A DNA stretch of 64,000 nt from an uncultured Alphaproteobacteria bacterium (GCA_963820075.1 CAWFYS010000006.1:637736-701735); one strand, 5' to 3'. Numbered from the stretch's first letter, positions 37,063-55,038 are shown. Numbers and translations: made by a program. The notes: generated by a model from the letters alone, not told the origin.

Positions 37063-38187
37063 TTAGAAGTTCCGCTGGAAGCGGATATCGAAGCCCCACT
37101 GGTCGGAAAGCTCTTCATCAGCGTTGTCGTCGAAGTTGTCGGTATAGTCAATTTCAGGCGTGATGGTGAAGCCAGGAACCAGTTCGTAGGCAATATTGGC
37201 GGCAACCGAGAAGTCCTCGAAGTCGTCATAACCAACTTCAGCGTTGAATGTCGCCTTTTCGTTGATCTTGATCGCCGTGCCAGCCCAGATGGCCCAGTCG
37301 CCACCCCAAGGTGCGTAGAAGTTCGCACCAGTGTCCTCTTCCTCGAAGTCGTCGCCGCCAGTGTCCCACGCACCCATCACGAAGACAGAAGCCGTCTCGG
37401 TGATGTTAAAGTCCACGCGAGCCTTGACCGCGACTTCCTCCTGATCGGTATCCCAACCGGCAACGAGGCCGATCTTGCCCCAGCCCTGGGTCAGCGACAC
37501 GCCGCCCACGACAAACGGTGCGTAGTCCTGGGTGATGCCACCTTCGTCCTCGTCACCCTGTTCAACCGCGATGGCGGCAGAGAAGCCGTTCGGGCCGGTG
37601 TAGGTGTAGGCGATCTGGAGCGTCGCGAATGGGCCGTAAGGCACCAGACCGTCGTTCAGCACGCCCGAGGAGTAGTCGGTGAAGGTCGAGAACAGCGAGT
37701 TCGTCTTACCGATACGGAAGCCGCCGAGCTCGATATAGATGTGTTCCCACGCGATACCGTCTTCGTTGTCGTAGGTGGTGTCGTAGACGAGATCGTTGGT
37801 ATCAGGGTCGATGCCGACGGGGTTCTGACCGTTGGTGCCCTCGTATTGGAAGTCGACCGCAGCATAAGAACGCAGCGTGCCGAGCTCGGTTTCCGAACGG
37901 GCGTCGACGCGCAGCTGGAAGCGGGCGCGGTTGTCATAGGTTTCTTCACCGTCCTCGCTGATGCTCTCAAACAGGTCGCCGCCGCGGATATCGACGCGGA
38001 CGTAACCGCTGACTTTCAAGCAGGTTTCGGTGCCGGGCATGTAGTAGAAACCGGACCCGTAAACGTCGCAGACGCGAACATATTCCATTGGTTCCGGCTC
38101 GGCGACGACCACAGCATCCGCCGCGCGAGCGCCGGAAACCGCGACGAGCGCCGCAGCGGAGCCAAGAAGAAGGCTCTTAATTTTCAT
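37063..38187 (-). CDS. Alphaproteobacterial porin (Omp2/RopA family)
   Basis: MKIKSLLLGSAAAL...AADAVVVAEPEPMEYVRVCDVYGSGFYYMPGTETCLKVSGYVR; C-terminal FQRNF; strong RBS GGAGG. Confidence 0.96.
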   Translation of the reverse strand: MKIKSLLLGSAAALVAVSGARAADAVVVAEPEPMEYVRVCDVYGSGFYYMPGTETCLKVSGYVRVDIRGGDLFESISEDGEETYDNRARFQLRVDARSETELGTLRSYAAVDFQYEGTNGQNPVGIDPDTNDLVYDTTYDNEDGIAWEHIYIELGGFRIGKTNSLFSTFTDYSSGVLNDGLVPYGPFATLQIAYTYTGPNGFSAAIAVEQGDEDEGGITQDYAPFVVGGVSLTQGWGKIGLVAGWDTDQEEVAVKARVDFNITETASVFVMGAWDTGGDDFEEEDTGANFYAPWGGDWAIWAGTAIKINEKATFNAEVGYDDFEDFSVAANIAYELVPGFTITPEIDYTDNFDDNADEELSDQWGFDIRFQRNF

Positions 38188-38819
38188 TTTCTGACCTCCA
38201 GTCAAAGTTCAAAATCGGGTTTGGGTCTTTTCTTGCCAAAGGACAGCGTTCCCTGCCCCATCCCCGAAAGTCGAAAAAGATACGATCGCTCGCCCTTTCA
38301 AGGTTGATGTTTACCTATCGCCCCGCCCCGTTCAACCATGATCGCAACCAATACCCCTCTGTACGGATTGCGATCACCAAAGTCTGTGGCACAAATGACA
38401 CGATTTGGCACCCCTCGGAAACGCATCGTTAACCACGTCGCCGCCCAAAGGCCGTGAACAATGATTGTTCCCTCCGCGAATCGCACAAGTACACTCCTTT
38501 GCCTCCGTGAATCATCTTTGGAATATATTCCTCGCGATCTTGTCGGCATGAATCAACGACGTTGAGCCGGGAAACAATTTTGTTTCAATATCAACCCAGA
38601 ACTGAACAAGGGCGACACCGCACGGCCGGGCGAGCCGGAAAACCGGCGTGCCCCGCCCGGGTTTCAGGCATACGCAATGGGATGCCGAAGCATGGTCATG
38701 TCGGGTGTCCATCGGAACGAGGTTTTCGAACTGGTCGGCGTCACCCGGATCGACCTGCCGCTGCAAGGCGGGATGGCGTAGCCGCTTGTCGTGTTGCGGC
38801 GGCGGACAGTTCAGGAATA

Positions 38820-39770
38820 TTACACCTGACGATCCTGCCGCGCGCCGTGCGCGCCAGGCAGGGCAACCGCAAAGGGAAAATCGGCGCGCCTGCCTTCTGT
38901 GGGGCAGATATCCACGGCGCACCGCGCGGCCGAGTTTCTGACGATGGGCGCGATGTGGCGTGCGAACGCCGTGATCTCCTCGACGGTGTCGAGGTCCCGG
39001 ATCATGAGTTCGGATATGCCAAGCGCGAAATAGGGCAGCAACGCAAGCGCCAGACGTTCCGGCGAACCCGCGCGCAATGCCGAATCCACACCGGTATCCG
39101 CACGTCCACCCTGGCCCCATTGGCAAAACCGAAGCGGCAGCGCGAACCGGATTTTCGCCGACCGGCCGCGGTCGGCGGCGGCGGCCCGCACACGCCCGAC
39201 GATGTGACGCAACTGGTCGGGCGGCGCGCAGGGCAGTTCGAACACGTCCGCGTGCCGCCCGGCAATGCGAAAGGCCGTGCCGGACAAGCCGTTCATGCGC
39301 ACCGGAATGTCGGCGCCCCGCGGCCCCTTGCGCGGCACGAAACCGCGCCGGATGCTGTAGGCTGGGCCTTCGTGATCGAATGGCGTCGCATTCGCCCACA
39401 AACGCTTCAGCAGCACAAGGTATTCGTCGCTCCGCTTCAGCGCCTCGACGTGGCTGGCCAGGTCGCCCGGCACGCTTGCATGGGTGACCATCCGAACCGA
39501 CAGCCTGCCGCCGCTCGCCGTGTCGAGTGCGGCGAAGCGGCGTGCCGCAGTAATCGGCTCGATTTCACCGGCGCGGTGGTCGATCGCGATATCCAGCATG
39601 CTGCTGCCGGCAATCGCCTCCTCGGCGATGTCCAGATTGGTCAGCGGTGCACCTTCATCCTCCACGATGATCCGGCCGAAGCCGGCGCGCTCCACATCGA
39701 AGTAGGGCGACGCCGCCCTCCCCGCGCCGGCAGCGCGCGACCCTATGACATGCGCGAACTCAAGCTGCAT
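38820..39770 (-). CDS. Divergent LLM-class (luciferase-like) flavin-dependent oxidoreductase, SsuD-like
   Basis: HRAGEIEPITAARRFAALDTASGGRL, LKRLW...PFDHEGPAY, IAGRHADVF; start behind GGAGGAG. Confidence 0.75.
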   Translation of the reverse strand: MQLEFAHVIGSRAAGAGRAASPYFDVERAGFGRIIVEDEGAPLTNLDIAEEAIAGSSMLDIAIDHRAGEIEPITAARRFAALDTASGGRLSVRMVTHASVPGDLASHVEALKRSDEYLVLLKRLWANATPFDHEGPAYSIRRGFVPRKGPRGADIPVRMNGLSGTAFRIAGRHADVFELPCAPPDQLRHIVGRVRAAAADRGRSAKIRFALPLRFCQWGQGGRADTGVDSALRAGSPERLALALLPYFALGISELMIRDLDTVEEITAFARHIAPIVRNSAARCAVDICPTEGRRADFPFAVALPGAHGARQDRQV

Positions 39771-39842
39771 AAGACGCTCCTCCGTCATTGCCTGCCGAGA
39801 ACCGAACGGACTTGGCCAGCGACCTCCCTGCCGCGTTCGGCC

Positions 39843-39995
39843 TCAAACGATGAGGCCGAAAACCAGTGCCGCCGCAAAGGCAAGGGCGACAATAAAAGCG
39901 ACATGCGCCGAAAGCGACGCCATGAAATGGCCCGCCGGAGCGTGATTGGCGCGAGCAGCGGAACGCGCTTCGGTCAGGCGATGGGCATGGGCCAT
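39843..39995 (-). CDS. 50-aa small membrane protein
   Basis: Below ORF-track cutoff. GAGGAGG RBS, MAHAHRLTEARSAARANHAPAGHFMASLSAHVAFIVALAFAAALVFGLIV*; C-terminal TM helix. Confidence 0.7.
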   Translation of the reverse strand: MAHAHRLTEARSAARANHAPAGHFMASLSAHVAFIVALAFAAALVFGLIV

Positions 39996-40062
39996 GATAA
40001 CCTCCTCATTCGGTTCGGTCCGTTCAAGCCGAAAACATCTCCCCTCGTCCGGAATTCATCTC

Positions 40063-40392
40063 TCACGCCGCTTTGCCGCGCAGCCGCTCCACGCAAATGG
40101 CCCGCAACAGGAATGCCGCCTCCGCATAGGTAACGGCGCCATCGACCATATCGGCGGTTCGCTCGCCAAGCGCGTCCCTGACGTCGTCGAGTATTCTCAC
40201 CGGCAGCAAATCCGTGCAGGTCCGCATCCGGCCGAATACCGAACTGATGGGCACGGTCCTGCCCTCGAACTCAACCGCCGGCTCGTCGGAATGCAGACCC
40301 CAATTCTCATAAGCCTCAAGCGCATCCTGGAAGGCCTGGTGCAGGAAGATCGGCGCGTGGCCCTCATGCAAAGGGGGAAGAACTCGAGTCAT
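40063..40392 (-). CDS. Hypothetical protein (109 aa)
   Basis: RBS AAGAGGAG; natural-looking composition (FQDALEAYENW...VFGRMRTCTDLLP). Confidence 0.75.
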   Translation of the reverse strand: MTRVLPPLHEGHAPIFLHQAFQDALEAYENWGLHSDEPAVEFEGRTVPISSVFGRMRTCTDLLPVRILDDVRDALGERTADMVDGAVTYAEAAFLLRAICVERLRGKAA

Positions 40393-40498
40393 GGCATTCT
40401 CCTCTTGGAATCTTGCTTCTGGCGCGAGCACGACCCCGCCCGGGGCCGCAATCGAAACTGGTACTCAACACCAATGGAATGGGACACGGTCGAGCGGC

Positions 40499-40669
40499 TT
40501 ACCAATGGCCGCACCAGGCCAGATAGACCAATTCTCCACGTGCCGGACGGGCCTCCTTCCGGACACCCACAACAAGGCTCCTGGCGATGGCCACCGCTTC
40601 GCCCGTGCTGAACATCACCCGAGCCCGGTCCAGCAGCGACCGGACAAGGCCGGAAAACGTCGGTGTCAT
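40499..40669 (-). CDS. 56-aa putative leader peptide ending YLAWCGHW
   Basis: RBS GAGGAG 6 nt before ATG 40669; first ORF of the leftward unit. Confidence 0.55.
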   Translation of the reverse strand: MTPTFSGLVRSLLDRARVMFSTGEAVAIARSLVVGVRKEARPARGELVYLAWCGHW

Positions 40670-40757
40670 CGTCAACTCCTCTGCATTGAACTGCGGATGG
40701 TTGGCAAAGGGCACTGCGTCACGGATTATGACGGCTCATTTCAGGATGTCAACAATG

Positions 40758-40774
40758 TCTACTAATTTTGTAGA
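40758..40774. promoter_or_regulatory. AT-rich palindrome, candidate operator (Rrf2-type spacing)
   Basis: TCTAC-TAATTTT-GTAGA in the divergent intergenic region. Confidence 0.5.
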
Positions 40775-41079
40775 TTAATAAATCGGACCAACGACTTAGG
40801 CCCATTTTCCGGCCCCCGAACCGGTCCCGATCCGGAACCGGCCGAAGGCTGAAAACCTGCCTGATTTTCTTCGGATGCTGAAATTATCAATCAGGAACAA
40901 AAAAAGATTCCGGAATTACCCCTAGAAATGGTTGAAATTACCTTCAGCCTGGCAGGCCGCGCATGGGATGGGAGCGGTGCGCAACGCGGCGTCCGCACGC
41001 GCGTTGTGGGTAGGGTTCAAGCCGGATTCGGCCCTGCCCGCGCATCGCGGAAGAGGCCGGCTGCTCCACGGAGGCAGAA

Positions 41080-42504
41080 ATGAGCGTCCACGCGATATCG
41101 GCATATGAAGGCGGCACGGGCCGCCTCAAACCGCCCTACCGGTCCGTTCTCGACCTCATCGGCGAAACGCCCGTGGTGGAACTCAAGCGCTTCGACACGG
41201 GCCCATGCCGTCTGTTCATCAAGCTGGAAAGCCAGAATCCCGGAGGCTCGATCAAGGACCGCATAGCCTTGTCGATGATCGCCGACGCGGAGCGCTACGG
41301 GCGCCTGGCGCCGGGCGGCACGATTGTGGAAGCCACGGCCGGCAACACCGGCCTGGGCCTGGCCCAGGTCGGCATTCCCAAGGGCTATCGCATCGTCCTC
41401 GTCGTTCCCGACAAGATGTCACGCGAGAAAATCCAGCACCTCAGGGCGCTCGGCGCGGAAGTCCGGCTGACACGCTCCGACGTCGGCAAGGGCCACCCGG
41501 AATATTACCAGGATATGGCGGAGAAAATCGCGGCCGGCACGCCCGGCGCCTTCTATGTCAACCAGTTCGCCAATCCGGCAAATCCGCTGGCGCATGAGAC
41601 GACCACCGGGCCGGAGATCTGGAGCCAGCTCGGCGAGGACATCGACGCCGTGGTCGTCGGCGTCGGGTCCGGCGGTACGTTGACGGGCCTCGGCCGCTTT
41701 TTCGCGAGGGTGTCGCCGAAGACGCAGATGGTGCTTGCCGACCCGGTTGGATCGGTGCTGGCGCCCTATGTCAAGACCGGCGAACTGCGCGAGGCCGGCA
41801 GCTGGACGGTGGAAGGCATCGGCGAGGATTTCATCCCGCCCAATGCCGACCTGTCCTTCGTCAGGAAGGCATACTCGGTCACCGACAAGCACAGCATGCT
41901 GGCCGTGCGCGACCTGCTCTCCAGGGAGGGCATACTCGCCGGCTCGTCCTCCGGCACGCTGCTTGCCGCGGCGCTACGCTACTGCCGCGAGCAGACTGCG
42001 CCAAAGCGCGTGCTGACCTTCGTCTGCGACAGCGGCAACAAGTATCTTTCCAAAGTATTCGACGATTTCTGGCTGGTTGAGCAAGGATTGGCCGAACGCG
42101 AGCAGCATGGCGACCTGCGGGACCTCGTCGCGCGAGCGCATCGCGAGGGCGGGACCGTCTTCGTCGGACCTCAGGATACGCTGCTGACGGCCTATGGCCG
42201 CATGCGCCGGGGTGACGTTTCGCAGCTTCCCGTGCTTGAGAACGGCACGCTGGTGGGCATCGTCGACGAGAGCGACATACTGGCCGTGCTCGAGGGACCC
42301 TATGAAGGCCGGTGGGACCGCTTCAGCGCGCCGGTGGCGACCGCAATGACGGCTGACCTGCACACGCTTCAGGCCGGCCAGACGCTCGACGCCCTGCTGC
42401 CCGTCTTCGAGCGCAACGAGGTGGCGATCGTCTTTGACGGCGACGAGTTTTTCGGCCTGATTACACGGGTCGACCTGATCAATCATCTGAGGCGGAATAA
42501 ATGA
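41080..42504 (+). CDS. cbs: Cystathionine beta-synthase (PLP domain plus CBS pair)
   Basis: KLESQNPGGSIKDR, ATAGNTG, GVGSGGT, EGIG, DSGNKYLSK, C-terminal CBS domains. Confidence 0.93.
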   Translation: MSVHAISAYEGGTGRLKPPYRSVLDLIGETPVVELKRFDTGPCRLFIKLESQNPGGSIKDRIALSMIADAERYGRLAPGGTIVEATAGNTGLGLAQVGIPKGYRIVLVVPDKMSREKIQHLRALGAEVRLTRSDVGKGHPEYYQDMAEKIAAGTPGAFYVNQFANPANPLAHETTTGPEIWSQLGEDIDAVVVGVGSGGTLTGLGRFFARVSPKTQMVLADPVGSVLAPYVKTGELREAGSWTVEGIGEDFIPPNADLSFVRKAYSVTDKHSMLAVRDLLSREGILAGSSSGTLLAAALRYCREQTAPKRVLTFVCDSGNKYLSKVFDDFWLVEQGLAEREQHGDLRDLVARAHREGGTVFVGPQDTLLTAYGRMRRGDVSQLPVLENGTLVGIVDESDILAVLEGPYEGRWDRFSAPVATAMTADLHTLQAGQTLDALLPVFERNEVAIVFDGDEFFGLITRVDLINHLRRNK

Positions 42505-43670
42505 CCACACCGAACAGGAACCGCCTGGCTTTCTCGACACGCGCCATTCACGGCGGCCAAAGCCATGATCCGACCACCGGCGCGGTCATGGTGCCGATCT
42601 ATGCGACCTCCACCTACGGCCAGCAAAGCCCTGGAGTTCACAAGGGGTTCGAATATGCCCGCAGCCAGAACCCGACGCGCTTCGCCTTCGAGCGCGCGGT
42701 GGCCGACCTTGAGAGCGGCACGGCCGCCTTTGCCTTCGCGTCGGGTCTTGCGGCCATCGCCACCGTATTCGAGTTGCTCGACGCGGGCGCCCACATCGTC
42801 GCGACCGACGATATATACGGCGGCACATTCCGGTTGCTGGAACGGGTGCGTAAACGCTCGGCCGGCCTGCGGGCCAGTTTCGCCGACTTCACGGACCTCG
42901 CGGCAGTTGAAAGAGCGATCACGCCGGAGACCAAGCTGCTGTGGGTCGAGACGCCCACCAATCCCTTGCTGAAGATCGTCGACCTCGAAGGCGTCGCCGC
43001 CCTGTCAAAGCGTAAGAACTTACTTACGGTCGTCGACAACACATTTTGCAGCCCCTATCTGCAACGGCCCCTGGAACTCGGGATCGACATTGTCGTGCAC
43101 TCGACCACCAAATACCTGAACGGCCATTCCGACATGGTTGGCGGCGTTGCGGTCGTCGGCGAAAACCGCGATCTCGCCGACCGGCTGAAATTCCTGCAGA
43201 ACGCGGTCGGCGCGATTTCCGGTCCATTCGACAGTTTCCTCGCATTGCGCGGCATCAAGACGCTGGCGCTGCGCATGGAGCGGCATTCGTCCAACGGTCT
43301 GAAGATCGCGCAATGGCTGGAGGGCCGCGTCGACGTGCGGCGCGTCATCTATCCCGGCCTTGCCAGCCATCTTCAACACGCGATCGCCAAACGCCAGATG
43401 CACGCCTTCGGCGGCATGATCTCAATCGAACTCGACCGCGATCTCGACGGCACGAAACAATTCCTTGAGCGCACCCGCCTGTTCACCCTGGCCGAAAGCC
43501 TTGGCGGCGTGGAAAGCCTGATTGAGCAGCCTGCCCTGATGACGCATGGCAGCATCCCGCCCGAGCAGCGCGCGGCACTCGGCATTTCCAATTCGCTGGT
43601 GCGTCTTTCGGCAGGCATCGAGGACGGCGACGATCTCATCGCCGACCTGGAGCAGGCGCTGTCGGGATAG
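42501..43670 (+). CDS. Cystathionine gamma-lyase/synthase
   Basis: YARSQNPTR, ETPTNP, VDNTF, HSTTKYLNGHSD, AESLGGVESL; ATGA-coupled to cbs. Confidence 0.93.
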   Translation: MTTPNRNRLAFSTRAIHGGQSHDPTTGAVMVPIYATSTYGQQSPGVHKGFEYARSQNPTRFAFERAVADLESGTAAFAFASGLAAIATVFELLDAGAHIVATDDIYGGTFRLLERVRKRSAGLRASFADFTDLAAVERAITPETKLLWVETPTNPLLKIVDLEGVAALSKRKNLLTVVDNTFCSPYLQRPLELGIDIVVHSTTKYLNGHSDMVGGVAVVGENRDLADRLKFLQNAVGAISGPFDSFLALRGIKTLALRMERHSSNGLKIAQWLEGRVDVRRVIYPGLASHLQHAIAKRQMHAFGGMISIELDRDLDGTKQFLERTRLFTLAESLGGVESLIEQPALMTHGSIPPEQRAALGISNSLVRLSAGIEDGDDLIADLEQALSG

Positions 43671-43678
43671 AATGCGGG

Positions 43679-44476
43679 CTAACCGTTCGCGGCAATCACA
43701 GCCCGCTTGGCCATGACGACGACGAGGTTCGCCCGATATTCCGCGGAAGCGTGCAGGTCGCTCATCAGCGCGTCGCTTGGCACCGACACCCCGGCAAGGG
43801 CAGCGGCGTCGAAATTCTGCGAGAGCGCTGCTTCGATCGGCGCGGAGCGGAACACGCCGTTCTCGCCGGCTCCCGTCACCGCGACGCGTACGCCATCATT
43901 GTCCTTCGCCACGAAAACACCGGTCATGGCGTAGCGAGAGGCCGGATTCGGGAATTTCGAATAGCCGGACCTGGCCGGTATTGCGAAGCTGACCGCCGTT
44001 ACCATCTCGCCTTCCCCAAGCGCTGTCTCGAACAGGCCCGTGAAGTAGTTTTCGGCCGCGATCTCGCGGCTGTCTGTGACGATGGTCGCGTTGAGCGCAA
44101 GCAGAGCCGCCGGATAATCGGCCGCCGGATCGTTGTTGGCGATCGAACCTCCGATCGTGCCGCGGTGGCGGACATGGGGATCGCCGATGTGGGCGGCGAG
44201 ATGGCAGATCGCCGGGCACGCCGCCTTGAGTTCGGCATTGCCGGCGACCTCGGCATGGGTGGTCGCGGCGCCGATGGTGACGGTCCCGCCCGATATGGTG
44301 ATGCCTTTCAACTCGGCTATATGGGTCAGATCCACGAGATCCGACGGTGCCGCAAGCCGTGTCTTCATCGCCGGGATCAACGTCATGCCGCCCGAGAGAA
44401 ATTTCGCCTCTCCTGTCCTGGCAAGTCTTGCAGCTTCGGAGAGCGAAGTGGCGCGGTGGTAGTTGACGGAATACAT
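43679..44476 (-). CDS. coxM: Xanthine dehydrogenase family FAD subunit (CoxM-like)
   Basis: LSGGMTLIP, VRHRGTIGGSIANNDPAAD, SAEYRA. Confidence 0.9.
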   Translation of the reverse strand: MYSVNYHRATSLSEAARLARTGEAKFLSGGMTLIPAMKTRLAAPSDLVDLTHIAELKGITISGGTVTIGAATTHAEVAGNAELKAACPAICHLAAHIGDPHVRHRGTIGGSIANNDPAADYPAALLALNATIVTDSREIAAENYFTGLFETALGEGEMVTAVSFAIPARSGYSKFPNPASRYAMTGVFVAKDNDGVRVAVTGAGENGVFRSAPIEAALSQNFDAAALAGVSVPSDALMSDLHASAEYRANLVVVMAKRAVIAANG

Positions 44477-44495
44477 CGGTTTTCTCCTTGCGGGA

Positions 44496-44609
44496 GTGAA
44501 TGGTGAACGGTGAATGGTGAATGGAATATTTCCCGGAACGTGATCTGCGCCTGGCGCCTTCGTTGCGGCGCCTTGCCTGTTCACCGCTCGATATCCACCA
44601 TTCACCTCC
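44496..44609. repeat. Heptamer tandem repeat (GTGAATG)x4 with inverted partner
   Basis: GTGAATG GTGAACG GTGAATG GTGAATG at 44496-44523; complementary TTCACC and TCCACCATTCACC at 44580-44606. Confidence 0.7.
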
Positions 44610-44611
44610 TC

Positions 44612-46960
44612 TCAGTGCTTTGCCGCCTGCAGCGCCGCCCAGACCTTCTGCGGCGTTGCCGGCATGGTTATGTCGTTGACGCCGATCGCATCGGTTATGG
44701 CGTTGATGACGGCGGGCGGCGAGCCGATGGCGCCCGCCTCGCCGCAGCCCTTGATGCCGAGCGGGTTGCCGGGGCAAGGCGTGTTCGAGGTCGAAACCTT
44801 GAACGAGGGCAGATTGTCGGCGCGCGGCATGGTGTAGTCCATGTAGCTCGCCGTCAGCAGCTGGCCGCCGGCATCGTAATAGGCGCACTCCAGAAGCGCC
44901 TGGCCGACGCCCTGCGCGATGCCGCCGTGAACCTGTCCCTCGACGATCGCCGGATTGATGATATTGCCGAAATCGTCCGCCGCGACGAACTGCACTATGT
45001 CTGTGACCCCGGTTTCGGGATCGATCTCGACCTCGCAGATGTAGCATCCCGCGGGGAAGGTGAAGTTGGTCGGGTCGTAGAACGCGCCCTCCTTGAGGCC
45101 GGGCTCCATTCCAGCCGGCAAATTATGCGCGGTATAGGCGGCCAGCGCCAGTTGGAACCAGGGAACCGACTTGTCGGTGCCGGCGACTTTCAGAGCGCCA
45201 TTTTCGACGACGATGTCGCCCTCGTCGGCCTCCATCAGATGGGCGGCGATTTTCTTGGCCTTGGCCTCGATCTTGTCGAGCGCCTTGACGATGGCCGACA
45301 TGCCGACCGCGCCGGAGCGCGAGCCGTATGTGCCCATTCCCATCTGCACCTTGTCGGTGTCGCCGTGCACGATCGACACGCTGTCCAGCGGCACCCCGAG
45401 GCGATGCGAGACAAGCTGTGCGAATGTGGTTTCGTGTCCCTGGCCGTGGCTGTGCGAGCCCGTCAGCACCTCGATCGTGCCGACCGCGTTGACGCGCACC
45501 TCGGCCGATTCCCACAGGCCGACGCCCGCGCCGAGGCTGCCTACCGCCGCCGAAGGCGCGATGCCGCAGGCCTCGATGTAGCAGCTCATGCCGATGCCGC
45601 GCAGCTTGCCTCTGCTTGCTGCCTCCCCCCGCCGCACGGCGAAGCCGTCATAGTCGGCCGCCTGCATTGCCGCGTCGAGCGAAGCGCCGTAGTCGCCGGC
45701 GTCGTAACACATGATCACCGGCGTCTGGTGCGGGAAGCTCGTGACGAAGTTGGTCCGCCTGAGTTCGGCGGGGCTGACGCCAAGCTCGCGCGCGGCGGTC
45801 TCGATCGTACGCTCGACAAGATAGGTCGCCTCCGGCCGCCCCGCGCCGCGATAGGCATCGACCGGCGTGGTGTTGGTGTAGACCGTGCGCACATTGGCAT
45901 GGATCGCCGGTATGTCGTACTGGCCCGACAGCAGCGTGGCGTAAAGATAGGTCGGCACGGAGGACGAAAACAGCGACATATAGGCGCCAAGATTGGCAAT
46001 GGTGTCGACCTTGAGCCCGGTGATCCTGTTGTTCGCGTCGAAGGCCATCTCGACCTCCGACACATGGTCCCTGCCATGCGCGTCGGTGAGGAAGCTTTCG
46101 GTACGGTCGGCCACCCATTTTACCGGCACGCCGGTCCTCTTGGATGCCCACAGGCAGACGATTTCCTCGGGGTAGATATAGATTTTGGAGCCGAAACCGC
46201 CGCCCACGTCGGGCGCGATCACCCTGAGCTTGTTCTCGGGCGCGACATTGTAGAATGCGCTGAGCACGAGGCGGGCGACGTGCGGATTCTGCGAGGTGGT
46301 CCAGCAGGTGTAGTGATCCTCGCCCCGGTCGTAATGGCCGAGAGCCGCGCGCGGCTCCATGGCGTTCGGCACCAGCCGGTTGTTGTGGATCTTGATGCGG
46401 GTGACGTGCGCGGCCGCGGCGATCGCCGCCTCGGCGGCCTTGGCGTCACCAATTTCCCAGTCGAAGATCAGATTGTTGTCGGCCTCCGGATGGAGTTGCG
46501 GGGCTCCTTCCTTGATCGCCTCTGCCGCGATGATCACCGCCGGCCTTTCCGCGTAGGTGACCTCGACCGCCTCCGCGGCGTCGCGCGCCTGGGCTTTCGT
46601 GTCGGCCACCACCACCGCCACCGCCTCGCCGACATAGCGCACGCGGTCGACGGCCATCGGCGACCACGCGCCCATCTTCATCGGCGAGCCGTCCTTGGAA
46701 TGGATCATCCAGCCGCAGATGATATTGCCGATACCGTCGGCCTTGATTTCCCTGCCGGTCAGCACGCCGATCACGCCGGGCATGTCCCTGGCATTCGAAA
46801 CATCGACAGTCGTGATGTCGGCATGCGCATGCGGGCTGCGCACGAACGCGGCGTGCTTCATGCCGGGCACAACTATGTCATCGACGTAGCGGCCGGCGCC
46901 GGTGATGAAGCGCCGATCCTCCTTGCGCGCGACGCGGGCGCCAATTCCCTCGAAACCCAT
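44612..46960 (-). CDS. coxL: Molybdopterin large subunit, form II CoxL-like
   Basis: DVGGGFGSK, AYRGAGR active-site loop (form II, not AYXCSFR), GQGHET, KGCGEAG. Confidence 0.92.
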   Translation of the reverse strand: MGFEGIGARVARKEDRRFITGAGRYVDDIVVPGMKHAAFVRSPHAHADITTVDVSNARDMPGVIGVLTGREIKADGIGNIICGWMIHSKDGSPMKMGAWSPMAVDRVRYVGEAVAVVVADTKAQARDAAEAVEVTYAERPAVIIAAEAIKEGAPQLHPEADNNLIFDWEIGDAKAAEAAIAAAAHVTRIKIHNNRLVPNAMEPRAALGHYDRGEDHYTCWTTSQNPHVARLVLSAFYNVAPENKLRVIAPDVGGGFGSKIYIYPEEIVCLWASKRTGVPVKWVADRTESFLTDAHGRDHVSEVEMAFDANNRITGLKVDTIANLGAYMSLFSSSVPTYLYATLLSGQYDIPAIHANVRTVYTNTTPVDAYRGAGRPEATYLVERTIETAARELGVSPAELRRTNFVTSFPHQTPVIMCYDAGDYGASLDAAMQAADYDGFAVRRGEAASRGKLRGIGMSCYIEACGIAPSAAVGSLGAGVGLWESAEVRVNAVGTIEVLTGSHSHGQGHETTFAQLVSHRLGVPLDSVSIVHGDTDKVQMGMGTYGSRSGAVGMSAIVKALDKIEAKAKKIAAHLMEADEGDIVVENGALKVAGTDKSVPWFQLALAAYTAHNLPAGMEPGLKEGAFYDPTNFTFPAGCYICEVEIDPETGVTDIVQFVAADDFGNIINPAIVEGQVHGGIAQGVGQALLECAYYDAGGQLLTASYMDYTMPRADNLPSFKVSTSNTPCPGNPLGIKGCGEAGAIGSPPAVINAITDAIGVNDITMPATPQKVWAALQAAKH

Positions 46961-47099
46961 CGAAATTCTCCTCCCGAACCTCGAACTGAACTGAAAACGC
47001 GGCGTGCGGCGCGGCCTGGCCGGTCAAACCATCGATCGGCCGATGTCCTCGCGCGAACGGCGATTTCCGCTCATCAAACCCTGCACTCTTTCTCGACTC

Positions 47100-47594
47100 T
47101 CACGCGGCTTTCGACGCTCCGGCACTCTCGGACATTGCCCGAGACGCCGCCAATATCGACTTGACGATGTTGTGATAACCCGTGCACCGGCAGATATTGC
47201 CTTCAAGCTCGGCACGCACCGTCGCCTCGTCCAGCCCTTCCGGATGCCGGTTGATCATGTCGGCCGCCGACATGATCATTCCGGGGGTGCAAAAGCCGCA
47301 TTGCAGGCCATGGTTTTCCTTAAAGGCAATTTGGATCGGGTGCAGATCCGCACCGCCGGCCAGCCCCTCGATGGTCACGACCGTGGAGCCCGACGCCTGG
47401 GCGGCCAGAATGGTGCAGGATTTGACCGCCTTGCCGTCGACATGCACGACACAGGTTCCGCATTGGGATGTATCGCAGCCCACATGCGTTCCGGTAAGTC
47501 CCAGATTTTCCCTGAGGAATTGGACGAGCAGCGTGCGGTCCTCGACCGTCGCGCCGACCTTGCGCCCATTAACAGTTAGAGAAACGTCCGACAT
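47100..47594 (-). CDS. coxS: [2Fe-2S] small subunit (CoxS-like)
   Basis: [10 protein letters not shown]...[17 protein letters not shown]. Confidence 0.93.
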
Positions 47595-50539: not shown

Positions 50540-51418
50540 CTATTGGAGCAACATCCTTCTCATGTCTCCATATCGCAAGGAGACCGGGACGCCATCGATT
50601 GAAAGCTGCCGCGACTTCGCGCTGCCGACAAGATGAATGATATTGATGGCCTCGTGGGGTGGTGTAGGCGCTGTCAGCAGCCGGGTTTCCCGGTCAAAGC
50701 GAGGAATGCTGTGAAGCGCCAGCCAATTGTTGACGGCGCGCAGAGGACAAATTCGCAAGCGTTGTTGGTATATCAATCTGTGCAGCGGAATCTGATCCGA
50801 AAAAAACCGCTCCTTTTCAAAGATCAATCGATTTTTCACCTCGTCCAGGCTTTCTTTCCAGATTTTCCAAACAGGTGATGAGTAAAATGCACCGAATACG
50901 CCGGCATTGACCATGGGAAATCGTGAAAATTTATTCCTATCCTGCTCGCCAAACATTTGTTTATAAACAGAAAGCGTATAATTGTCCGGAAATTGGCAAG
51001 CAAAATAGTTTGGATCGATCTGGGGGTGGATCGACAGGTCGGCGACGCGCGCGGCTTGCGCGATTTCGTGAAGCCCGGCTTCCCGCTGAACCCACGTGTC
51101 GGCGTCGAGCCAGATATAAGTCTGATAGCCTGGAAAAAATTCCGGCAAGCGCGTCTTGACCGCAAGATAGGCGAGCTGGAACCCTTCGTTCGGCGTCAGC
51201 GCAAATTTATCGGTCGACACGGTCGCAAGAATGTCGGCTCGCGACACGACGGAATCTGGCGGCGGGACATCACCGACTTGAATGAAGCCGACCGTGAAAG
51301 TCCGGGACTTCATCGCTCGCAGTGACAGGAGAAGCTCCGCCGCCAACTCATAGTGGTTGGCGTCGCACCCAGTCACGACTATCGAATCCCGCAATATCCC
51401 GCCCCAGTCATCGGCCAC
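50540..51418 (-). CDS. Putative GT-A fold glycosyltransferase-like protein, lower GC
   Basis: IWLDADTW (DxD), VNAGVF, SDQ and IIHL pattern like GT8-type enzymes; visibly AT-rich. Confidence 0.65.
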   Translation of the reverse strand: MADDWGGILRDSIVVTGCDANHYELAAELLLSLRAMKSRTFTVGFIQVGDVPPPDSVVSRADILATVSTDKFALTPNEGFQLAYLAVKTRLPEFFPGYQTYIWLDADTWVQREAGLHEIAQAARVADLSIHPQIDPNYFACQFPDNYTLSVYKQMFGEQDRNKFSRFPMVNAGVFGAFYSSPVWKIWKESLDEVKNRLIFEKERFFSDQIPLHRLIYQQRLRICPLRAVNNWLALHSIPRFDRETRLLTAPTPPHEAINIIHLVGSAKSRQLSIDGVPVSLRYGDMRRMLLQ

Positions 51419-54573: not shown

Positions 54574-55038
54574 ATGCGGCTCACCCGCCAGACCAACTAT
54601 GCCATGCGCATTTTGATGTATTGCGCGGCCAACGAGGGCCGGCTGAGCCGTATCCCCGAGATCGCCGAGGCCTATTCAGTATCCGAGCTTTTCCTGTTCA
54701 AGATCCTCCAGCCCCTGGTCGAAAACCGTCTCGTCGAGACGGTGCGCGGCAGGAACGGCGGCGTCAGGCTCGGACGGCCCGCCGACAAGATCAACCTGTT
54801 CGACGTCGTACGTGTCACCGAAGAGAGCTTTGCCATGGCCGAGTGCTTCGAAAACGACGCGACCGAGTGTCCCTTGGTGGATAGCTGCACGCTGAACGCC
54901 GCGTTGCGCGAGGCGCTGAACGCCTTCTTCAGCGTGCTCGAACGCCATACGATCGAGGATCTGGTCAAATCGCGGCAAGACGTGCGCGCGCTGCTGGGAA
55001 TTGATGCGCTGGCAGCGGCCCGGGCGCCGGCGGCCTGA
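54574..55038 (+). CDS. rirA: Iron-responsive Rrf2 regulator RirA
   Basis: MRLTRQTNYAMRILMYC, RGRNGGVRL, ECFENDATECPLVDSC three-Cys cluster motif. Confidence 0.96.
   Translation: MRLTRQTNYAMRILMYCAANEGRLSRIPEIAEAYSVSELFLFKILQPLVENRLVETVRGRNGGVRLGRPADKINLFDVVRVTEESFAMAECFENDATECPLVDSCTLNAALREALNAFFSVLERHTIEDLVKSRQDVRALLGIDALAAARAPAA

Follow-up and report, generated by a model that had tools for sequence, protein, structure and literature searches.

We analyzed a 64,000-nucleotide stretch of DNA, hereafter the window, from an uncultured Alphaproteobacteria bacterium (GCA_963820075.1, CAWFYS010000006.1:637736-701735), focusing on a cluster of four minus-strand genes and the operator-like palindrome in front of it. 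The genes encode a 56-amino-acid peptide (A), a 109-amino-acid protein (B), a 50-amino-acid peptide (C), and a luciferase-like protein (LLM), and they lie opposite cbs, which codes for cystathionine beta-synthase, and cgl, which codes for cystathionine gamma-lyase. The assembly, G000, comprises 4.56 Mb and is 87% complete; its named relatives are Mesorhizobium, Tianweitania, and Oryzicola. The features of the locus, in window coordinates, are as follows.

38423..38820, unstranded: junction where the collinear relative G008 holds about 46 kb, placed by synteny
38820..39770, minus: LLM, a TIM barrel of the luciferase-like type, from an unnamed family without the SsuD/MsuD sulfonate ligands and lid, with an in-frame 11-residue deletion in helix 1
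39843..39995, minus: C, a 50-amino-acid single-helix membrane peptide of an unnamed family, motif F-x5-F-x2-A-x-V-x-G
40063..40392, minus: B, a 109-amino-acid BRA0787-family protein (NF052508) with invariant H12, W31, C59, and D61
40499..40669, minus: A, a divergent 56-amino-acid member of an unnamed peptide family whose aromatic C terminus, E-x-F-Y-W...G-x-W, is conserved
40725..40752, minus: sigma70-type promoter TTGACA-16-CATAAT for A-B(-C-LLM), kept in relatives
40758..40774, unstranded: operator-like palindrome TCTAC-N7-GTAGA, 5 nt upstream of the -35 box
40749-40776, plus: possible promoter TCAACA-16-TAGATT, a sequence pattern with its spacer filled by the palindrome
40981..41005, plus: GCAAC-N16-CGTT element upstream of cbs, with conserved spacing and a free spacer in 7/7 loci
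41080..42504, plus: cbs, cystathionine beta-synthase-like (PALP and two CBS domains), from domains and structure matches
42501..43670, plus: cgl, cystathionine gamma-lyase, from domain and structure matches

All four minus-strand open reading frames (ORFs) are preceded by a ribosome-binding site (RBS) of the GAGGAG/GGAGG type, as the original prediction, a note made from the sequence alone, had it; for LLM, the RBS makes the ATG at 39770 (316 amino acids) the likely start, not 39788. The intergenic region shared with cbs, estimated there at about 410 bp, measures exactly 410 nt.

The palindrome TCTACTAATTTTGTAGA at 40758 is unremarkable taken alone, being matched by 24 of 300 shuffles. Within the assembly, it is the only perfect TCTAC-N7-GTAGA and the top match to a position weight matrix at 34 bits (next match, 18; best control, 18.5). 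Its end lies 5 nt from the TTGACA-16-CATAAT promoter facing A. The element, recognized from the start as operator-like, is also conserved in position: among 19 distinct A loci, 16 have an upstream site with at most one mismatch, as do 30 of 43 C loci (one C match is probably spurious), with the family consensus TCTAY-N-A-R-W-Y-T-N-RTAGA. At A loci the site sits 5 to 6 nt before TTGAC in 14 of 16 cases, and at C loci it typically fills the spacer of a TCGACA-16-TAGACT promoter. Sites at both A and C indicate that relatives have two units, operator-A-B and operator-C-LLM, the second with C as first gene behind its own operator and promoter. The window has lost this second operator; no site lies upstream of its C.

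The same palindrome precedes sulfur genes in relatives, including sbp, cysG, cysH, tauA, ssuA, and msuE, and the cluster itself lies there in a sulfur island with cysP/sbp-cysTWA, an Rrf2 gene, a gene for a flavin adenine dinucleotide (FAD)/nicotinamide adenine dinucleotide (NAD)-binding protein, tauABC, and ssu genes. In two of five genomes, the loose pattern TCTAY-N7-RTAGA showed no enrichment relative to its control (6 versus 5 each), and a stricter pattern was used instead for counts across 150 family genomes. The 72 genomes matching the regulator profile held 62 strict sites against 10 for reversed-pattern controls, and the 78 without a regulator match held 14 against 34. Of 61 strict sites listed, 19 are no more than 10 kb away from the regulator gene, where 0.3 are expected, and one-mismatch sites stand directly upstream of the Rrf2 gene at three loci (L095-L097). 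Twenty sites came from seven genomes with at least three sites each. Twelve precede recognizable sulfur genes (cysG-sulfite reductase, cysH-cysD, sbp, SsuA/TauA-type transporters, flavin mononucleotide reductases, TauD, LLMs), three precede C-LLM, three are plausible, and two are not sulfur-related. Locus L163 encodes a Peripla_BP_4 protein.

An out-of-sample case comes from Sinorhizobium meliloti, where the sole strict match on the 1.66-Mb pSymB (CP140955.1:155044) lies 47 bp before msuE-LLM-ABC (ATP-binding cassette) genes. The same replicon encodes a 57%-identical four-Cys Rrf2 regulator (L227:4923-5456), beside der and bacA, which makes pSymB a ready test system. On a named Mesorhizobium plasmid, operator-C-LLM lies beside Rrf2, ssuD, and sfnB. 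The closest regulator clade is found in 18 genomes, of which 15 have C and 14 have LLM; both are rare elsewhere, a pattern that may reflect shared ancestry. The sulfur link proposed for the small ORFs and LLM is strongly supported, through the operator they share with sulfate and sulfonate genes and the four-Cys Rrf2 gene neighboring them in relatives. As a separate observation, the FAD/NAD(P)-binding protein (PF13454; L022:9046-10389 and orthologs) recurs beside the regulator and LLM in relatives and was not found in G000. A strict site also lies upstream of a 1-Cys peroxiredoxin gene in genome G146 (L169:2509); this protein is reminiscent of LsfA, the sulfate-starvation peroxiredoxin of Pseudomonas.

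The Rrf2 protein of a relative scores 116 bits against TIGR00738 (cutoff, 73) and falls below the cutoffs for CymR (NF047409, 88.5 of 195 bits), IscR (67.8 of 207), NsrR (75 of 182), and RirA (61.7 of 193). All 28 copies read carry C-x8-C-x2-C-x4/5-C, and these four invariant Cys suggest an Fe-S protein. CymR of Bacillus subtilis and Staphylococcus aureus is the best named NCBIfam match and is among the top PDB matches. It shares the Rrf2 fold, and the predicted control of sulfate, sulfonate, and cysteine genes through promoter palindromes recalls its regulon, but CymR has no cofactor according to the available text of PMC5411485. The predicted rhizobial regulon is also alphaproteobacterial, uses another site, and includes three unnamed small-protein or pseudo-enzyme families. 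The four-Cys Rrf2 protein shares with IscR, NsrR, RirA, and RsrR a connector-region Cys cluster that likely provides ligands for a metal cluster. However, the predicted targets here are sulfur uptake and assimilation genes, and IscR has the spacing C-x5-C-x5-C-x2-H in the portion of PMC9218516 available. That portion also lists large uncharacterized Rrf2 clusters in its sequence similarity network; the four-Cys Rrf2 may be one of them, and such a large group may thereby gain a possible function.

In G000 itself, the regulator appears to have been lost. G008, the closest relative, is collinear on both sides of the junction and holds between the porin gene and LLM a segment of about 46 kb that ends in cysP-cysTWA-Rrf2-FAD/NAD-binding gene, and the window's porin-LLM junction is spanned by soil contigs of two independent studies. 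A search of the G000 assembly for Rrf2 genes found only RirA and no four-Cys regulator, which is present in 9 of 10 same-genus genomes; orthologs of ssuE, ssuA, tauA, and the FAD gene were also not found in this assembly. The RirA gene, the sole Rrf2 gene of the assembly, lies at 54580-55020 of the window. A second, looser operator-like site lies 30 nt upstream of sbp-cysTWA (G000:C4, about 98368; L177:6369) and occupies the same place in G001 and G005. Because no regulator was found and the operator of C is gone, the window copy is probably a deregulated remnant. A deletion would have removed the regulator and a second sulfate transporter, and the operator of C would have degenerated, leaving A-B-C-LLM to be transcribed without control from a single promoter. 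The window thus looks like a natural case of regulator loss.

We found 25 homologs of A, 151 of B, and 48 of C, in keeping with the expectation that the small ORFs are conserved and co-occur with sulfur genes, as they do in the islands of relatives. When the small ORFs were compared in 12 pairs, the ratio of nonsynonymous to synonymous substitution rates (dN/dS) stayed under 0.4 in 11, the exception being window A versus L015 (0.76). For B, C, and LLM against relatives it was 0.11 to 0.30, similar to pairs excluding the window sequence. Conservation and dN/dS together indicate that all three small ORFs are coding. Contigs from RNA libraries (four runs from three studies, chosen via this stretch and not used for expression) include stretches of A, B, C, and LLM with 95 to 100% identity and little of cbs-cgl.

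Neither A nor C matched any Pfam, NCBIfam, or PHROG family, with no Pfam match above noise at an E value of ≤1. Across the A family only the aromatic tail E-x-F-Y-W...G-x-W is conserved. The WCGHW ending of A, which the original prediction had singled out, is not a family feature, and we ruled it out as a metal or redox motif because its Cys is not conserved. B follows A in 17 of 19 A loci, a count biased by most loci having been reached through B, and a complex prediction for the A-B pair of L025 gave no usable answer (score, 0.00). C contains one hydrophobic helix, at its C terminus (Kyte-Doolittle 19-mer, 2.95), and is followed by LLM in 25 of 42 loci. Where LLM is absent, C adjoins cysA (L016, L026, L027), suggesting at most a transporter-accessory role.

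B passes NCBIfam NF052508, the BRA0787 family, at 141.7 bits (cutoff, 65), a family that carries no function; it has no match in Pfam or PHROGs. Its predicted model is confident (predicted local distance difference test [pLDDT], 91) and has no Foldseek match at an E value of ≤0.001. Against known folds, among which a PqqD-like fold was sought, the best VIA Z was 5.4 with generic helical matches, showing neither a new nor a known fold, and an ESM Atlas search gave no usable match. His12, Trp31, Cys59, and Asp61 are invariant in B and largely kept in the best 150 of 350 distant matches, which suggests a metal or catalytic site. None of 84 distant homologs has a Pfam match accounting for the B domain. 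One distant branch (P0146-P0270) carries the motif GGHAP...W..GEPEP...LLWNCxD, with no Pfam or PHROG match in the members scanned; another observation from this branch is the N-terminal Fic domain of member P0165. The description of BRA0787 as an ABC-transporter membrane subunit, from a table in the single paper naming it, does not fit B.

B is present in 74 of 300 genomes. For its contexts we took the best 30 of 81 matches, with the distant clade thinly sampled (8 loci), and from a quick-search tree with weak support and one duplicate row (L217) we used context counts only. A, C, LLM, or the regulator lies within 1.4 kb at 31 of 33 high-scoring B loci, whereas 7 of 8 low-scoring distinct loci have none of them; the sulfur linkage of B is confined to the close clade.

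The LLM has the luciferase-like fold (PF00296, 76.8 bits), with a TIM barrel model (pLDDT, 87), and its nearest relatives in structure and sequence are SsuD, SfnG, and MsuD, which head the Foldseek matches. Against the NCBIfam SsuD/MsuD family it reaches 47.7 bits, far below the cutoff of 518. We compared the families through profile alignments to 7jv3, with MsuD residues numbered according to the accessible part of PMC8234197 and a 23-residue tag offset derived from the alignment. The R225 position of MsuD is a nearly invariant Pro in the LLM family, the W195 position is Pro, Ala, or Gly, and about 55 MsuD residues holding the lid (250-282) and the R296 sulfonate-binding loop are missing from the family profile. 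These elements are needed for MsuD activity: the R225A, W195A, and R296A variants made no sulfite, as stated in the part of PMC8234197 available. Given their loss, the sequence of this family is not that of an SsuD.

The LLM family belongs to the same predicted regulon and retains equivalents of MsuD H123 and S178. Together with purifying selection, the retained residues make a non-desulfonating flavin-binding or partner subunit likely, with a new substrate as another possibility. The family is poor in Cys and Met (0.43% and 1.33%, versus 0.88% and 2.07%). The original prediction had called the LLM degenerate, which holds, though at the level of the family and not just in this genome. The 11-residue deletion belongs to the window LLM, whose N-terminal segment is the shortest among 33 measured.

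The palindrome precedes A-B, C-LLM, and sulfate and sulfonate genes, tracks the Rrf2 gene, and adjoins or sits within sigma70-like promoters. Because it precedes sulfur-uptake and assimilation genes across rhizobia, A, B, C, and LLM are likely accessory genes for sulfur starvation. We consider it fairly probable that they are accessory members of a rhizobial sulfur-starvation regulon, probably repressed by the four-Cys Rrf2 protein at the palindrome, and that the present copy is probably a remnant. When sulfur is plentiful, the regulator, likely holding an Fe-S cluster on C-x8-C-x2-C-x4/5-C, would block the palindrome promoters, and it would be released from them under sulfur starvation. With less confidence, C might act at the membrane on the uptake of sulfur compounds, LLM might serve as a non-desulfonating flavin-binding or partner subunit, and A and B might act together. 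A wider proposal, plausible but to us slightly more doubtful than credible, is an undescribed global regulon from Mesorhizobium to Sinorhizobium, in which a four-Cys, probably Fe-S, Rrf2 repressor acts on TCTAY-N7-RTAGA. In the Mesorhizobium-like lineage this regulon would drive three dedicated effectors (C, and A with its partner B) and a conserved pseudo-monooxygenase, which would adjust the uptake of sulfur or the delivery of flavin.

Several results weigh against this account. No strict site was found in 38 of the 72 regulator-bearing genomes, and 11 of the 78 regulator-less genomes have one. The Fisher P value of 1e-5 for the association is overstated because the genomes are kin, and some counted sites helped build the pattern. 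In G000, cysG and cysH have no site, while the perfect operator and the looser sbp site persist, fitting a regulator that is still present; at 87% completeness, it could be unassembled. Among the eight lowest-scoring distinct B loci, seven have neither operator nor partner, which indicates that B is not sulfur-specific. Binding of Rrf2 to the site is predicted from sequence and context, and the protein roles of A, B, C, and LLM from context only.

The cbs-cgl arm fared less well as part of a sulfur module. The enzyme identities in the original prediction were borne out by domains and nearest solved structures. The cbs product has PALP and a C-terminal CBS pair, CBS as its nearest structures, and TIGR01137 as its best family (375.5 bits; cutoff, 510), with serine or O-acetylserine as its possible substrate; the cgl product has PF01053 and CGL as its nearest structures (E value, 5e-176). 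The structured cbs leader, in contrast, had to be given up, and we rejected a riboswitch there: RNA folds of the upstream region scored z values of -0.73 and +0.10 against shuffles, no Rfam match reached gathering level, and the consensus fold of -6.4 kcal/mol carried an unfavorable covariation term. What is conserved upstream of cbs, about 220 nt from the operator, is the element GCAAC-N16/17-[CA]GTT, whose spacer sequence varies freely across all 7 cbs loci compared; the pattern is expected about 0.005 times per 200 nt. Its form GCAAC-N16-CGTT resembles the promoter consensus of extracytoplasmic function (ECF) sigma factors, and it is likely an ECF-sigma-type promoter, not an RNA leader.

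The small genes adjoin cbs in 2 of the 17 genomes with a close CBS (G000 and G001), and the arrangement is limited to the genus, so cbs-cgl is probably a genus-specific neighbor with its own promoter. Mesorhizobium loti has presumably the same gene pair as a cbs-cse operon (mll4505/mll4503). Its CSE mutant makes less H2S, and the accessible part of PMC10522845 reports no small-gene link.

A rival reading, the one closest to the original prediction, joins both arms into a single cysteine/H2S-status divergon co-regulated by the palindrome. Reverse transsulfuration suits sulfur limitation, and the palindrome fills the spacer of the plus-strand TCAACA-16-TAGATT promoter-like sequence facing cbs. 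In the genus, a site lies about 240 to 380 nt upstream of cbs in 7 of the 8 genomes whose cbs locus was read, even with tauABC inserted or A-B missing, so that co-control there is possible. Nevertheless, the divergent gene that each site near cbs faces accounts for that site, and cbs is preceded by a conserved element of its own. Beyond the genus, the 15 close cbs loci have no small genes within 1.5 kb and a single weak one-mismatch site among them; we regard the divergon as unlikely. The palindrome might also be read by another factor, such as a LysR/CysB-type activator, with the Rrf2 gene hitchhiking in sulfur islands. The site at A is centered near -48, an activator-like position, it persists in G000 in the absence of the Rrf2 gene, and many regulator-bearing genomes have no strict site. 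At C, however, the site overlaps both the promoter spacer and the -10 box, where a repressor would sit, and sites precede the Rrf2 gene itself. The 5-N7-5 layout also resembles the Rrf2 site TGTAA-N9-TTACA given in the available text of PMC9218516, leaving this reading improbable.

Whether the cluster still has a function in this genome is a further question. The missing regulator, FAD protein, and ssuE, ssuA, and tauA orthologs, the vanished C operator, the LLM deletion, and the loss of some motif residues from A, with its raised dN/dS against L015, would all fit a decaying relic. Against this stand four intact frames with RBSs, an intact promoter and operator, the low dN/dS of B, C, and LLM, and an LLM model that is still a TIM barrel. 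Near-identical soil strains from four studies also show no indel in the small ORFs or LLM among the matches listed, and we find a functionless relic rather unlikely. Finally, A could be the precursor of a ribosomal peptide, with a variable leader and an aromatic C-terminal core, that is bound by B and modified by LLM or the FAD protein. The conserved aromatic C terminus of A, the biased A-B adjacency, and the oxidoreductases nearby in relatives would agree. B often occurs without A, however, LLM and the FAD gene have promoter units apart from that of A-B and are missing from several A-B loci, and no radical-SAM (S-adenosylmethionine), protease, or exporter gene lies beside A in the loci read, making this highly improbable.

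Returning to the sulfur-starvation regulon, the cluster would work like a CymR-type sulfur regulon, but its regulator is not CymR and its LLM is not an SsuD; the novelty is the predicted regulon with its unnamed effectors, and cbs-cgl is ordinary. As tiny genes heading sulfur-uptake units, A and C parallel the small sulfur-starvation proteins OscA/YezD (DUF2292), although they lack a Pfam match. A CymR-named regulator has reportedly been described in Paracoccus. The Rrf2 literature, as far as its text was available, names IscR, CymR, RirA, NsrR, RsrR, SifR, HypR, and SaiR and gives none of them the Cys pattern or site described here. In the literature searched (including the accessible text of PMC2821768, PMC1698941, PMC11672702, PMC9338935, PMC7474069, and PMC12774639), we found no description of the regulon, site, or small genes and no coverage of rhizobial sulfur-shortage sensing; subscription papers lay outside this search, and a prior description is possible. 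For such sensing, the present analysis offers a named regulator as a candidate, the 17-bp site, and a list of targets. It would also place two microprotein families without annotation, the BRA0787 family, and an LLM lineage without a sulfonate site in a functional context for the first time.

Other features of the window lie on either side. An Omp2-type porin gene occupies 37063-38187 (PF02530), with inverted repeats upstream at 38339-38376 and 38456-38470 that are possible porin-promoter operators. Right after cgl, coxMLS-like molybdo-hydroxylase genes extend over 43679-47594; of the five relatives checked, G008 alone is collinear here. A low-GC (48%) stretch at 50540-51418 contains a weakly glycosyltransferase-like ORF. 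Between the cox-like genes lies a 29- to 30-nt intergenic element (44495-44524) that is repetitive extragenic palindromic (REP)-like and recurs widely in four of five relatives searched.

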